Made by a program: the position numbers. A DNA stretch of 48,288 bases from a virus (taxonomy: Duplodnaviria > Heunggongvirae > Uroviricota > Caudoviricetes). Numbering within the stretch: position 1 is the first letter of the stretch; each line of letters starts with the position of its first letter. The stretch is from IMG/VR virus record IMGVR_UViG_2923307698_000006; one strand, given 5' to 3'. This document shows positions 27,001-33,000 of this stretch, piece after piece.

Positions 27001-30000
27001 TCCTTCGACAACTTCATGCCCGGAACGACAGGTTTACCATCCACCAGGATGGCACCGCGGCAGATGGTCCAGATACCCGCACCATCACGGTATGCCGTGG
27101 TGTGGTTACCTTCCTTTTCATCCAGAAACTGGTCGAGGATTTCAGGCGCAGACGCCCCTGCACCAATCAGCGCCAGAATGGCAGCCGACAGGCCGTATCT
27201 GATTTTTGCGTTCATGGATATTTATCAGGATTTATCGATTTCAAATCCCTGGATATGTTAAGTCTTCAGGCCAGCGGTGGAGTCTTCAGAGAACCCGTAA
27301 TTATTCCCGGTAGTTTTCCTCTGTAGGTTATCAACACATCCTGCGCCTCTAAAATGACGGGGCGCTTTTCCGGCAACGGACCATCCCCTTCACATAACCC
27401 GGCAGCAACATCCATGAAAAACTGCTTCGCCTGCTTTTTCGCCTCAGCTTCGTAAAACTCCAGCGTGGCACCTTCAGTACGGTCAAGACTAATCGCCACA
27501 TCTGGCAACAACAGTGACGGATACCCACCAATTTCCAGTGCCACAGTAACAGTAATCTTATCCGGGTAATTATTTATCCCTTTAACACCCAGTTCGTATT
27601 TTTTCTTCATCGCTTTACTCCCCCCGCGCCGCCTTACGACGGTCCTCTCTGATTTTGAAATACAGGTTAGTCAGATACGTCAGCAGGCCAAACAGCAGAC
27701 TCCCCAGCACACCTATCGCCACCCACTGGGACGGAGAGACTTTGTCCAGCAGCTGCAGTAACCAGTATCCCGTCCCCACCGCTGACGTGGTGTATGACAC
27801 ACCCGTTGTGATTTTTTCCATCTGATGTATGTCTCCGTCACCGCCGACAGAAAATGAAAGTAAAGGAAAACAAAAAGCCGCCAGTGTCGCCCACTGACGG
27901 CCAACGCCGGGAGCCGTGATTATGGCATTCAGGCTCTGCTAAAAATGCCAGATAACATTCCGGCTCCCCCCCCTGATTCAGGTTATAAATGACACAATAT
28001 CTTGACAACACCCATCACTGTCTGTCAGAAAATGTACTGCCAGATATAAGTATCATGTGAAACCCAACTATCCTTCTTAGCCAGTACTTCTCCGACGAAA
28101 GTCAGTACTGGCTGTTTTTTTATTATGCTGCCGGTGCATTTATCTCCAGCACCAGACTTTCTATCTCAACGCCATACGCTGCATTTTTTGTAACATCCGT
28201 CAGCGTCAGCACATTCAGTCCCAGTGTCAGACTGTCTTTTATAACCTGGAATGCCGGGCCAGCCACTCCATTCAGTTTCGGAGTAACCGTGGCACTGCCG
28301 GCGGTGAACACCAGCTCCAGCGTCTGCCAGTCGTTACCGTAATCGCCGAACTCCCCCAGCTTCGTGTTTCCGGCTTTCCTGTGATGCATCAGATTCACTC
28401 TGCCGTCAGTGGTCTGAGTGAAGTACGACATCAGGAACGGATTACCGGTACCCGTCATCGCCACACCATCAGGAACGGGAGCATCCGTATACAGATAAAT
28501 CCCCAGCCCGAACTGATTGTTGGTCAGTGCGCCTGACAGGCGGAACTTACAGGTCAGTCTGCCGCCCTGTGTCAGCAGGGTAATTGCGTCATCCACCGGA
28601 TGCGTCAGGGACCAGGTTTTATTGCTCTGCTTGGTGATCTTAAATACACCATCTGACAACTGAATTCCGCCATCCTTAATGCTCCAGCCCTGCGCAGCAG
28701 CCTCTCCGGCTGCCGGCAGCAGGGAGATTGTGCGAACGGACGTATCTGCAGACGGACCCGATGGCGTGTTGCCGCCGGGCGAGGGTTTGATTTCCGGTGC
28801 CTTACCACTGATGAAGGCGGAGGTGCGCCCGGCTGCGTTCAGAATAGCGGTTGCCAGACGATCCGGAATAATGCTCCTGCGCGCCCATGAACTGAAATGT
28901 GTCGGGCGGTTTGATGATACCTGGTTTCCATTCGTTCTCGATGCCGCACCGTAATATCCTGATGCCGGAATATCCGGATCTTCTGCCGGCGCGTTAGTGG
29001 CGGTATTGACGCCGTTACCGTCTGTCATGAAGGGCACAAAATAAACGCCCTCACTCTCCCTGTTTTTATACCCGCCGTACACGGTGTCGTACTGGGTAGC
29101 GTATGTATTTTTCCAGTAATACGTCGTGTCACCACAAATCCACGGCACATCTGCAGCACTGCCACCATGGCACTGCGCGTTAAACACGGAGAGGTCAGCA
29201 CGAAACTGTGCCAGCATGGCTGTAAACAGCGCAGGTTGCTGTGCGTGGGTGGCGGCGCTCATGTCAAACTCTCCCTGCATCCAGCACACCGCCAGCAACA
29301 CATTTTTCGGGTTCTTCTGTAATGCAGCTTTAGTGCGCGCAATCAGGTCCTGATATAACGGTTTACCCACACCCCAGCGTGCCGAATCCTGGCTGGCCCC
29401 CGTGTCCGCACTGAATGTCCCCTCAGCGCCCTGGGTGAATGCAGAACCACCACGACAGCATGGTACCAGCAGGATCCCCGCGTTATTCGGGATATACGGA
29501 AGCAGTTTTTTGGCAATATGTAAGCCCTGGCCGACACAGCCGTACTGCCCTTTGCTCAGGTCTGCCTTCGGATGATTCAGCGTACTCATATCCTGCACAT
29601 CATGCAGGCAGTGGTCGGCCGGAATAATATCGTTATATCTGCAGGCAGCCCCACCCGGCGTCACTGTACTGCGGCGCGCCAGCTGTTTAATGCGCGGATC
29701 CGGAGCATCGTATGAATCCGGAAGCGGAAGCCCTTCACCGTAAGCCATTGCATTGGACTGCCCGGCCAGTACGATGACGTAGTACCAATCCGGCTCAGTT
29801 GCACCACTGACCACCACATCACCTTCTGCTGCAATCGCCTGCATCAGGGTATAAGGGGTTATGGCCACCGGACTACCAAACGGCTGCCAGCCCTCTTTCA
29901 GTTTGTGTGTCAGCTTTTCCGCAAGGTCTGACGGCGACGCCGCCCTGACAACATCATAATGTTTAAATGTCATTATTCCTCCCGGCCGGGATAGTGTATT

Positions 30001-33000
30001 AAATCAGATATGGAGTGGGCTGTAGTCCGGAAGCCTGAATGACACACGGGGACTACAGCCCAAGAAATGAAAAAAGGCCACGCAGTTGCGCAGCCTGATA
30101 AACCCTGGTTAAAATCCACACGATAACAACACAACAATATCAGTATCTCATGCTATTGCCCGAACCCATTCGGGCATTTTTTTACCCATAAAAAAGCCCC
30201 TCCGGAGAGGGGCATGTTTGCATGCACATTCTTTTTCTTGCATGGTGCCGGGTGCCTCCCGGTGAATTCAGTATCAGCACCTGAATCCGCGATTACCCCA
30301 TATTCCTTCTTGCTGATTGCCCCACCGCACAGGGGGATTCACCATGCAGAAGTGTTTTTAATAAACAGCAAACAAAAAAATCAAGCATTATGCAGGCTGT
30401 TTCTTTTTATCACCGGCCACAGCAATACCACAATGCCGCAGACCAGCACTCCATCCGCCAGCACCGACATGATCCTGCTGGTGAAATCCACCATCACCAC
30501 TAGAAACAGCAGGAGTGCCACAGCGGCCAGACGCAGTTTTACCGTCACAGGTGGTTCTCCAGTCGCAGGCCAAGAACACCAGCAATCTCTTCCAGAACCT
30601 TACGCTCTTCCGGCTCAATTTCACCATCTGCTTCAGCAATGGCCACCGCCACATCCAGCACATCTTCCGCTTCACGCGTATCGTGTTTCACATCTTCAAT
30701 TTCACGCAACGCTGCACGACGACCAATTTTAAAATTGGTGTCAAGCTGACCTGTGATCGTGGCACTGATGGCATTAATTTCTGACGTAAATGCGGACAAT
30801 GCTGGCTGGTTACGTAATACCTGTTCGATCTTCGCTTTCTCTGAAGTCTCACATTCACCATCTGCATAGGCCACCAGGTAGGCAGCATTAATAACCGCCT
30901 GTGCCAGATCGCGTTTCTCAAACTTTTTAATTTCAGTTGCTGCTCTGCGGGTTTTCTTTTTGAAAATACCAAACATCGTGACTTTTCCTTTTAGTGGGTG
31001 AGCCTGCGCCCGGGGGTGACCAGCCCACAGAGAAAGTCACACTGACCATCCCGTAAGCTCACCCCTGAAAGGCTCTGTGGTTTTTGATGTACGCCGGGCG
31101 TGGCGCGGAAATAAAAAAAAGGTCCGCCAAAGCGAACCTTAAAGATCAGAGAGGGATATTTTTTATTGATGAACAAAATTCAGCCAACCATAAGGTTAAC
31201 TACAAAACAACATGCAAATACACGCTACCTACAACGGCAAGCAGATAAGAAAAATGCAATCGCTACGAAAACCAAACTCAGGATTAATCAGCCAACTGAT
31301 TTGGTCGGCAGTTGTAAATCTCAGCCAGTTTTTCCAGTGTTGATTTTCGCGGAGCTCCTGCTCTCTCAAACTGAGATACGGCTGACTGTTTAACCCCCAG
31401 GCGCTCCGCCACTTCCTGTTGAGTCATTCGCCTGTAAATCCGCCATGCTGCCAACAATGACACATCATCATCAATCATGATGGATACTACTTCATGAGGT
31501 ATTGTTTCATTGTCATTCTCTCCGGCTTCATACTGGATGCTTTCAAAATCATCATCAGGATCTGCCAGACTTAACAGCCGTTCATATTCAGCAACTGACA
31601 TAATGACCCCGGTTCTAACACCGGCATTATCAGTAATAAACTGGACACTGTTTTTCATATCATTGCCTTTCGCGATTGAATGTCGTTCAGCAAACTGGCG
31701 GTCTCCCGCCAGCCTCCCTTAGTATGTGGTTGTGCTTCTGCGCTTAATTTCCTTAATATCCAGGACAACAGGATCACCATCCTCAACATCAAAAATAACC
31801 CTGTACACGCCGACCCTCAAACGGAATCGATTGTCACTCCCTGATAGCTTTTTAAAATCCATGGCTACCAGAGGAAAATCCTTTAGCGCACCGACCTTAT
31901 CCTTTATCGCCTGCCGATACCGCGTATCCACACGAAGTAACTGCTTCAGGGCTGTCCTTGTCCATCGAACCTCAATCATTATCCCCCCCTCTGATTCGTG
32001 AGAAAACATGATTATTTTCGAGAACAACTTTACACCCCATACTTATATATTGCAACAAGACTTATGAAAAAATAAGCATTAATTAATCAATCAACAGCTT
32101 TACACGTCAGAATTTCTCTTATCTCGCTCACCGTCTGCTCAAACCGTTCAGCCTCAAGCTCAAAACGCCTATTGCCCGACGACCAAGCGAAAGCGCGGCT
32201 TTTATCGTGGAACCTGACCCCATAAAAAAGTCGGCAACCAAATCACCCGGACGACTGCTGGCCTCTATTATCTGACGCAACATATCTGCCGGTTTTTCAC
32301 AGGGGTGTTTGCCCGGATAATACTGTACAGGCTTATACATCCAGACATCCGTATACGGAACAGCAGCCGATACAGAAAAATAACGCCGCAAAGATTTGTA
32401 CTCCTCCAGCAGGCTGGCATATTGCCGGTTAAGTTCACTGTATGTGCTGACCAGCTGGTGGTGTGGCTTTTCCAGTTCCCCGCGTTGATGTTTTTCTGCT
32501 GCAACACGCGCAAACAACGCCTGCAGTTTTCTGTAATCATCCTCGTTCGGTAACTGCCACTGGCGGGCACCAAACCAGTGCGACACCATGTTTTTCTTTC
32601 CGGTGGCTTCCGCTATCTGTTTCGACGTTATCCCCAGTGATTCACGCGCATCACGAAAGTAAGAAATCAGCGGAGACATCACATGCTGTTTAAGCTCGCG
32701 CTCCTTTGCCGCATAGCCGCCATTTTTTGGCTGGTATGGCCCCTGATAATGTTCAGCAAACAGAATACGCTCTGTGGCGGGAAAATACGCCCGCAGGCTT
32801 TCCTTACTGCACCCGTTCCAGCGTCCGGACGGCTTCGCCCAGATGATATGGTTCAGCACGTTAAAGCGTTCGCGCATCATGATTTCGATATCAGATGCCA
32901 GGCGATGACCACAGAACAGGTAAAGACTTCCGGCAGGCTTCAGTAACCGCCAGAACTGCGCCAGACACTGGTCCAGCCATTTCAGGTAATCATCGTCGCC

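Follow-up and report, generated by a model that had tools for sequence, protein, structure and literature searches.

The prophage sialate O-acetylesterase gene nanS-p in the virus record IMGVR_UViG_2923307698_000006 (Caudoviricetes; the whole stretch of 48,288 nucleotides (nt) is called the window here) is very probably bracketed by two known prophage small RNA (sRNA) genes, one for AgvB upstream of it and one for a member of the PasA family downstream, both of which would be transcribed against the phage late operon. The window is a lambdoid prophage adjoining potC; the minus strand carries its late genes. In the initial annotation of this DNA, plus-strand terminators had been noted at the 3' end of nanS-p and in the spacer between the TerB gene and nanS-p, and these were proposed either to end short plus-strand transcripts (about 70 nt, up to 28121 and 30184) or to block antisense transcription. 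Both terminators are present, one as a helix at 28078-28114 and the other as a helix at 30157-30176, each followed by a run of seven T residues, and each would end a short plus-strand sRNA, PasA-family and AgvB, respectively. Blocking of antisense transcription would be a by-product rather than their primary role. Terminator-like sites are enriched in the surrounding region, where a terminator scan of 26500-32500 gives 13 such sites versus an expected 5.6 +/- 2.4.

The AgvB locus

AgvB has been described in prophages Sp10 and Sp17 of Escherichia coli O157:H7 (as EcOnc01a/b), where Northern blot, 5' RACE (rapid amplification of cDNA ends), and genetics established it as an Hfq-bound anti-sRNA of about 60 nt (PMC4104026). 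AgvB mimics the targets of the sRNA GcvB with its 5' region, binds the R1 seed of GcvB in a duplex, relieves repression of dppA, and favors growth in bovine rectal mucus (PMC4104026). Judged by its sequence, the locus ending at 30182 in the window is this already described sRNA. The Rfam covariance-model search that had been suggested as a check gives a match to the AgvB model RF02702 of 96.5 bits, as compared with a gathering score of 56 (E 1.5e-17; model positions 1-62 of 62), with all 62 nt equal to the consensus. The same 62 nt are found without a difference in AgvB1 of Sakai Sp10 (NC_002695.2 1941920-1941981, minus strand; at 1.94 Mb, an offset of some +140 nt separates the coordinates of Tree et al. 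from this version) and in PPyecE_EH1910. The terminator, on the plus strand, has eight pairs in the terminator scan, and the 64-nt RNA of the locus folds with a z score of -3.5.

The feature on which the published function depends is likewise retained. The 5' variable region, CGAUAACAACACAACAAUAUC, contains CACAACA, the consensus of GcvB targets, and the first 21 nt are predicted to pair with nt 66-85 of GcvB (the R1 seed) at -19.4 kcal/mol through 14 contiguous base pairs, whereas shuffled sequences average -12.4 +/- 2.8 kcal/mol, with 14 of 1000 as good. This calculation was restricted to the single-stranded 5' region; an unrestricted RNAduplex run of the whole of AgvB with the whole of GcvB was discarded for producing an unrealistic 60-nt duplex. 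The window copy thus agrees with Sakai AgvB in sequence, terminator, CACAACA mimic, place, antisense orientation, and convergent late-strand partner, with no difference at the sequence level, and the order TerB, AgvB, nanS-p, holin is that of Sakai Sp10. The two prophages differ farther upstream, as Sp10 has tRNA genes 3' of the antiterminator gene Q, whereas the window prophage instead has a DNA methylase gene and RelE/HTH between Q and TerB.

A plausible promoter for AgvB, TTGCGC (30086-30091) and TAAAAT (30110-30115) separated by 18 nt, can be proposed from the sequence and is kept in a Stx1a (Shiga toxin 1a) phage. Its putative -35 element lies inside the stem-loop of a late-strand terminator, so that one DNA segment would serve both strands.

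Related anti-sRNAs have a common 3' module, and as a consequence the locus also matches AsxR (RF02703; 43 bits at 30132-30180, below the gathering score of 63). AsxR, an anti-FnrS sRNA located 3' of stx2B in Sp5, has the conserved 3' portion of about 42 nt and the class of position in common with the window AgvB; the 5' variable region in the window is of the AgvB type, so that the locus is not AsxR. The Stx1a phage has an AgvB-like sRNA (L006 5967-6026, plus strand; 56.6 bits) in which the 5' region, CGAUAAAAAUGACAAUGCAAG, differs and the predicted pairing with GcvB is much weaker (-11.5 kcal/mol). From that weaker pairing it would be an anti-sRNA to which no target is assigned.

A convergent sRNA pair in the moron-nanS-p spacer

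The spacer in which AgvB lies was initially described as about 570 base pairs (bp) without an open reading frame (ORF), at 29974-30544. Only 407 bp (29974-30380) are in fact free because the gene for a DUF3927 protein occupies the remainder, and these 407 bp are nearly filled by an STnc100-family sRNA, AgvB, a late-strand terminator of PasD type, and, in the 5' untranslated region (UTR) of nanS-p, a hairpin of 13 bp. The STnc100 match (RF02076) covers the full model at 142.5 bits on the strand opposite AgvB. This copy is about 95% identical to that of Sakai Sp17 and has its own late-strand terminator at 30213..30196, with its 3' end 1 nt from the AgvB 3' end. The abutting pair stands between DUF3927 and nanS-p, and AgvB is antisense to transcription from the late promoter PR'.

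The AgvB gene is flanked on one side by the STnc100 terminator and on the other by the PasD-type terminator (nine pairs in the scan), which aligns with the 3' end of PasD2 of E2348/69. A common ancestor of PasD and STnc100 has been proposed (preprint 10.64898/2026.05.13.724894). Compared with these late-strand prophage sRNAs found upstream of the esterase (STnc100/PasD; EcOnc13), the window has a match to the full-length STnc100 model and a terminator of PasD type, whereas the PasD seed, CCUUGUGAG, is absent from the spacer. EcOnc06 (about 177 nt, Sp17, listed as "5' ECs1961") may correspond to the STnc100 copy, an equation drawn across the coordinate offset mentioned above. The possibility that the STnc100 RNA is a short PR'-tR' transcript, analogous to lambda 6S or StxS, was rejected because the distance from Q, located upstream, exceeds 3 kb and five genes intervene. 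A 172-amino acid (aa) ORF on the plus strand (30214-30732), antisense to TerB/DUF3927 and overlapping STnc100, corresponds to the hypothetical ECs_1960 in Sakai and was dropped by the Prokaryotic Genome Annotation Pipeline in E. coli 14EC047; it is probably spurious.

Comparison with the flanks of Stx phages, also suggested initially, shows that this arrangement recurs. The window spacer is homologous to the conserved intergenic region between stx1B and nanS-p in the Stx1a phage Stx1_14040, and an STnc100/AgvB-type convergent pair is found 3' of stx1B in that phage as well as in PPyecE_EH1910 and Sakai Sp17. The Sp17 spacer is about 95% identical over its entire length and identical from AgvB to the nanS-p ATG. 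Tree et al. described convergent sRNA pairs between a moron coding sequence and a conserved ORF (PMC4104026), a description that the recurrent STnc100/AgvB pair fits. The earlier equation of the spacer with the place of stx was imprecise, as in Stx1_14040 the stx1AB genes stand upstream, in the late direction, of the homologous spacer, in the place held here by TerB/DUF3927. No stx gene is found in the window prophage.

The PasA-family locus

The second plus-strand terminator belongs to a different sRNA family. PasA of enteropathogenic E. coli (EPEC) E2348/69 is an 85-nt Hfq-dependent sRNA (NC_011601 743499..743415, minus strand; PMC8550237 Table S6), with a minor 236-nt form, encoded between the esterase gene E2348C_0688 and the holin gene E2348C_0689 in the orientation > < > (PMC8550237). 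Hfq-dependent RNAs of about 85 nt have been shown for both PasA and PasC of E2348/69, and the homologues in enterohemorrhagic E. coli (EHEC) are EcOnc51/52 (PMC8550237), with peaks in Sakai by Hfq-CRAC (UV cross-linking and analysis of cDNA). Alignment and gene order place the locus that ends at 28121 in the PasA/PasC family, which has already been catalogued with many variants. Aligned end to end, it is identical at 70 of 85 positions (82%) to PasA of E2348/69, at 75 of 85 (88%) to a PasA-2-like sequence of O157 OK1, and at 61 of 85 (72%) to PasC. It lies antisense between nanS-p and the holin gene, a synteny and orientation the same as published for PasA (PMC8550237; preprint 10.64898/2026.05.13.724894), and the published PasA Northern probe matches 28088-28115 save at the variant positions. 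The features in common with PasA, PasA-2, and PasC (PMC8550237; Zhu, Shabalina and Storz 2026 preprint) are thus the length of 85 nt, an alignable 5' and middle part, location, orientation, a terminator of the same architecture that ends in a U-tract, and conservation of the upstream region. For 27850-28200, the best match found was to E. coli 14EC047 (100% identity), and O157:H7 PV15-279 and O145:H28 16003 are among the strains whose locus is likewise 100% identical.

The U-tract of this terminator is encoded at 28115-28121, which leaves a single nucleotide between the T run and the stop codon of nanS-p (28123-25). For the 85-nt RNA, the predicted fold (-19.5 kcal/mol; z score -2.7) is an 11+3-bp stem followed by U7; a simple terminator scan missed the helix because of an internal loop in the stem. 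No Rfam family explains the terminator at 28080-28121 in a permissive search of 27500-30700 (E up to 10), in which the best match there, Bacillus ncr982, scored 28.5 bits (gathering score 50) and was dismissed as chance.

The window copy does depart from PasA in the seed, which is formed by the 5' arm of the terminator. The published seed, GCCAGCACCU, reads GCCAGUACUU at 28080-28089, with two C>U changes, and because it is not kept the copy is classed as a variant of the PasA family, not as PasA sensu stricto. One of the two changes is compensated in the stem (U-A). As both are C>U, pairing to G-containing targets can persist through G-U pairs. By hand alignment, GCCAGUACUU can pair with the motif GGUGCUGG at the nanS-p 3' end, known from RIL-seq (in which interacting RNAs are ligated and sequenced), with two G-U pairs; the optimum found by RNAduplex for the window variant is not this site.

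Several points weigh against the assignment of sRNA genes to both flanks of nanS-p. RefSeq annotates none of the PasA-family, AgvB, and STnc100 RNAs. For the PasA-family copy, membership depends only on alignment and synteny because PasA has no Rfam model, a consensus promoter scan did not call the upstream pair of boxes TTGACA (28003-28008) and GAAAAT (28028-33), spaced by 19 nt, and the 5' end of PasA may arise from processing rather than from this putative promoter (preprint 10.64898/2026.05.13.724894). With its two seed changes, the range of targets here may also differ from that of PasA, whose published targets include ftsB, frr, and the nanS-p 3' end.

It may further be argued that the plus-strand terminators are insulators only, protecting nanS-p and the moron genes from stray antisense transcription, with no functional RNA attached to them. 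Each indeed stands exactly at a gene boundary, one of them a single nucleotide away from the stop codon of nanS-p and the other abutting the STnc100 3' end, and the loci are known in this strain from sequence alone. Insulation as their only role is nevertheless very improbable indeed, as conservation reaches upstream of the hairpins over sequences that match, fully or nearly so, RNAs seen in Northern blots, Hfq-CRAC, and RIL-seq, conserved promoter-like regions lie just 60-85 nt upstream, and the complementarity of the AgvB seed to GcvB is intact.

Late-strand terminator-like hairpins are also found at 27876-27902 (11 pairs and a U run) and 27947-27964, in the interval that separates the PasA locus from the start of the holin gene. 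An RNA from the nanS-p 3' UTR that ended at these hairpins would be fully antisense to PasA. In EPEC, RIL-seq has registered an intergenic RNA, pasA.E2348C_0689.IGR, on the late strand.

Variation in the PasA family across genomes

A scan of IMG/VR with a family-conserved pattern yielded at least 120 loci. Among the matches listed, about 36 are PasA-type, 35 PasA-2-like, 29 PasC-type, and 11 of the window type. In all four kinds of copy the stretch of 60 nt upstream, which includes TTGACA (28003-28008 in the window), hardly varies. Across 13 unique variants, all nine consensus pairs of the terminator are kept, three of them with compensatory changes (C-G/U-A, A-U/G-C, C-G/U-G/U-A). Most of the PasA and PasA-2 loci listed also have a second tandem module in a spacer of about 148 bp before the nanS-p stop (for example L002 4250-4420, L128 2485-2635, and L003 about 3770-3915), with its own upstream box, TTGACA...CTGTCTGTGAAAAAT, and a PasC-like terminator. 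This second module is probably EcOnc52, and the 236-nt form of PasA a read-through product. The window copy is without it; as in PasC, its terminator joins the nanS-p stop directly.

Among 5426 complete genomes, the window-type variant is found at full length and at least 99% identity in 85, including O157:H7, O145:H28, and O103:H2. In many O157:H7 genomes it matches over nt 1-50 only and is followed, after GCCAGTA, by the end of an IS629/IS1203 insertion sequence (L112; H84-H91). In these cut copies the sRNA gene is disrupted inside the terminator and seed.

The family is visibly mosaic, and the window copy could on that account be viewed as a decaying or recombinant remnant, a PasA-2-type 5' part and a terminator fused to nanS-p and not active as PasA. 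Such a view would accommodate the two substitutions within the published seed, the loss of the 148-bp second-module spacer of most PasA/PasA-2 loci, and the many IS629-cut copies in O157:H7. Against this view, the variant is kept at full length in many independent serotypes (O157, O145, O103), with the stem change compensated, the terminator intact, and the upstream region conserved; PasC also joins nanS-p directly and is expressed in EPEC, and both C>U seed changes still pair with G in targets. Decay is thus very unlikely. Taking the copy as a PasA-family gene, its local peculiarity amounts only to a minority variant of PasA with two C>U seed changes and a single-module layout.

Proposed mechanism and implications

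In the arrangement proposed here, STnc100 would be transcribed from the late strand and AgvB from the opposite one, forming a convergent sRNA pair upstream of nanS-p. The CA-rich 5' end of AgvB would mimic GcvB targets and pair with the R1 seed of this core sRNA, sequestering it and relieving its repression of targets such as dppA, as was shown in Sakai and is expected here from sequence identity. From the esterase-holin spacer, the PasA-family sRNA of about 85 nt would run antisense toward nanS-p and stop at its intrinsic terminator; by homology it would be Hfq-dependent and trans-acting, with its seed in the 5' arm of that terminator. The plus-strand terminators would then represent the 3' ends of the sRNAs themselves and also their Hfq-binding modules, with the side effect that sRNA transcription is kept from running antisense into nanS-p or tciB. 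On the late strand, the terminators at 30213..30196, 30096..30075, 27964..27947, and 27902..27876 are predicted to end moron and esterase transcripts that are not antiterminated in the lysogen, while polymerase modified by Q would read through all of these sites, producing RNA fully antisense to AgvB and to the PasA copy.

Two extensions of this scheme may be considered, and either is rather doubtful. In one, the PasA variant has diverged functionally and has targets of its own, as proposed from its seed, the compensation in its terminator, and its layout as one module joined to the stop codon of nanS-p. In the other, induction of the prophage would titrate or destroy AgvB and the PasA variant because the Q-antiterminated late transcript is complementary to both over their full length; if so, the lysis decision would be coupled to the GcvB and Hfq networks of the host.

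Both sRNAs have been described previously, and the feature is ordinary for an E. coli prophage of this type and opens no new question. Its value lies mainly in annotation, as RefSeq presents this 2.3-kb stretch as one gene and "empty" spacers, where at least three sRNA genes are predicted to lie. The PasA-family, AgvB, and STnc100 sRNAs reprogram post-transcriptional networks of the host in EHEC and EPEC. The occurrence of AgvB in a non-Stx prophage that comes from a clinical isolate and itself carries nleB2 and nleC indicates that the anti-GcvB function moves along with the nanS-p module without depending on stx.

A conserved hairpin in the nanS-p 5' UTR

The spacer was also said to contain a 12-bp inverted repeat at 30016-30062. 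The repeat exists, but its stem has 13 bp rather than 12. On the late strand it forms a hairpin directly after the PasD-type terminator, with a predicted stability of -28 kcal/mol (z score -6.4; 0 of 200 shuffles as good). It is identical in Sakai Sp17, PPyecE_EH1910, and the Stx1a phage and 620 of the 5426 complete E. coli genomes contain it at 99% identity or more; the 1681 genome matches, counted irrespective of nanS-p adjacency, are almost all recorded at 99% identity or more. Because the sequence is invariant, a covariation test is impossible. The hairpin is absent from E2348/69 PP2 and from O157 OK1, where an unrelated 5' UTR stands instead. A miniature inverted-repeat transposable element is not supported as its origin, as PPyecE_EH1910, Stx1a_14040, and Sakai Sp17, the three loci whose alignment reaches the nanS-p start codon, all carry it at the same position of the nanS-p 5' UTR. 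No known function was found for it.

Gene order and other features of the window

In the late direction, the genes follow the order Q, DNA methylase, RelE/HTH, TerB/TciA-like, DUF3927, nanS-p, holin, YdfR, lysozyme, and then the structural genes (Table 1). In Stx phages, tRNA genes are typical between Q and stx; none were found in the window. Two small ORFs on the minus strand, 27838-28011 and 29973-30137, were rejected as genes, being unannotated and without a Pfam match.

Table 1. Coordinates of the features discussed, in window positions
Feature	Position	Strand	Evidence
Holin gene	27615-27821	-	
PasA-family upstream region, putative promoter (TTGACA-N19-GAAAAT)	28003-28033	+	inferred promoter
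PasA-family sRNA gene, window-type variant, 85 nt by homology	28037-28121	+	alignment, synteny
nanS-p, prophage sialate O-acetylesterase, 616 aa	28123-29973	-	ORF list; Pfam DUF1737 + SASA + DUF6645; RefSeq annotation
13-bp hairpin, nanS-p 5' UTR, 42 nt upstream of ATG	30016-30062	-	fold
Late-strand terminator, PasD-type (stem 30096..30075, then U6)	30069-30096	-	scan, 9 pairs
AgvB anti-GcvB sRNA gene, 62 nt	30121-30182	+	Rfam RF02702, Sakai identity
STnc100-family sRNA, PasD-related	30184-30376	-	Rfam RF02076, 142.5 bits (gathering score 47), model 1-206/206
Moron cargo at stx-equivalent position (TerB/TciA-like + DUF3927/TciB-like)	30381-30976	-	Pfam, annotations, Stx1_14040 comparison
DUF3927/TciB-like gene, 55 aa	30381-30548	-	Pfam (60 bits), RefSeq annotation
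TerB/TciA-like moron gene	30545-30976	-	Pfam, annotations
Q	33726-34547		

Outside the nanS-p region, genes for type III secretion system effectors (nleB2 and a truncated nleC) and a frameshifted sodC occupy window positions 1-1223 and 7346-7872. Many structural genes are frameshifted in the closest RefSeq record, which may reflect assembly errors or decay. Other sRNA loci are present as well. STnc490 (146 bits; 14259-14382, minus strand), the sRNA derived from the IS200 5' UTR, adjoins an IS200C tnpA gene (13792-14250) that is inserted after the tape-measure gene on one side and before that for tail assembly on the other. In the early-right region, at 36427-36755 (minus strand; sok 114 bits), there is a type I toxin-antitoxin locus, hokD/sok. 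The DicF sRNA (76.7 bits; 43160-43211, plus strand) is located upstream of dicB (43423-43611, plus strand), the usual arrangement of a Qin/Kim-type immunity region.

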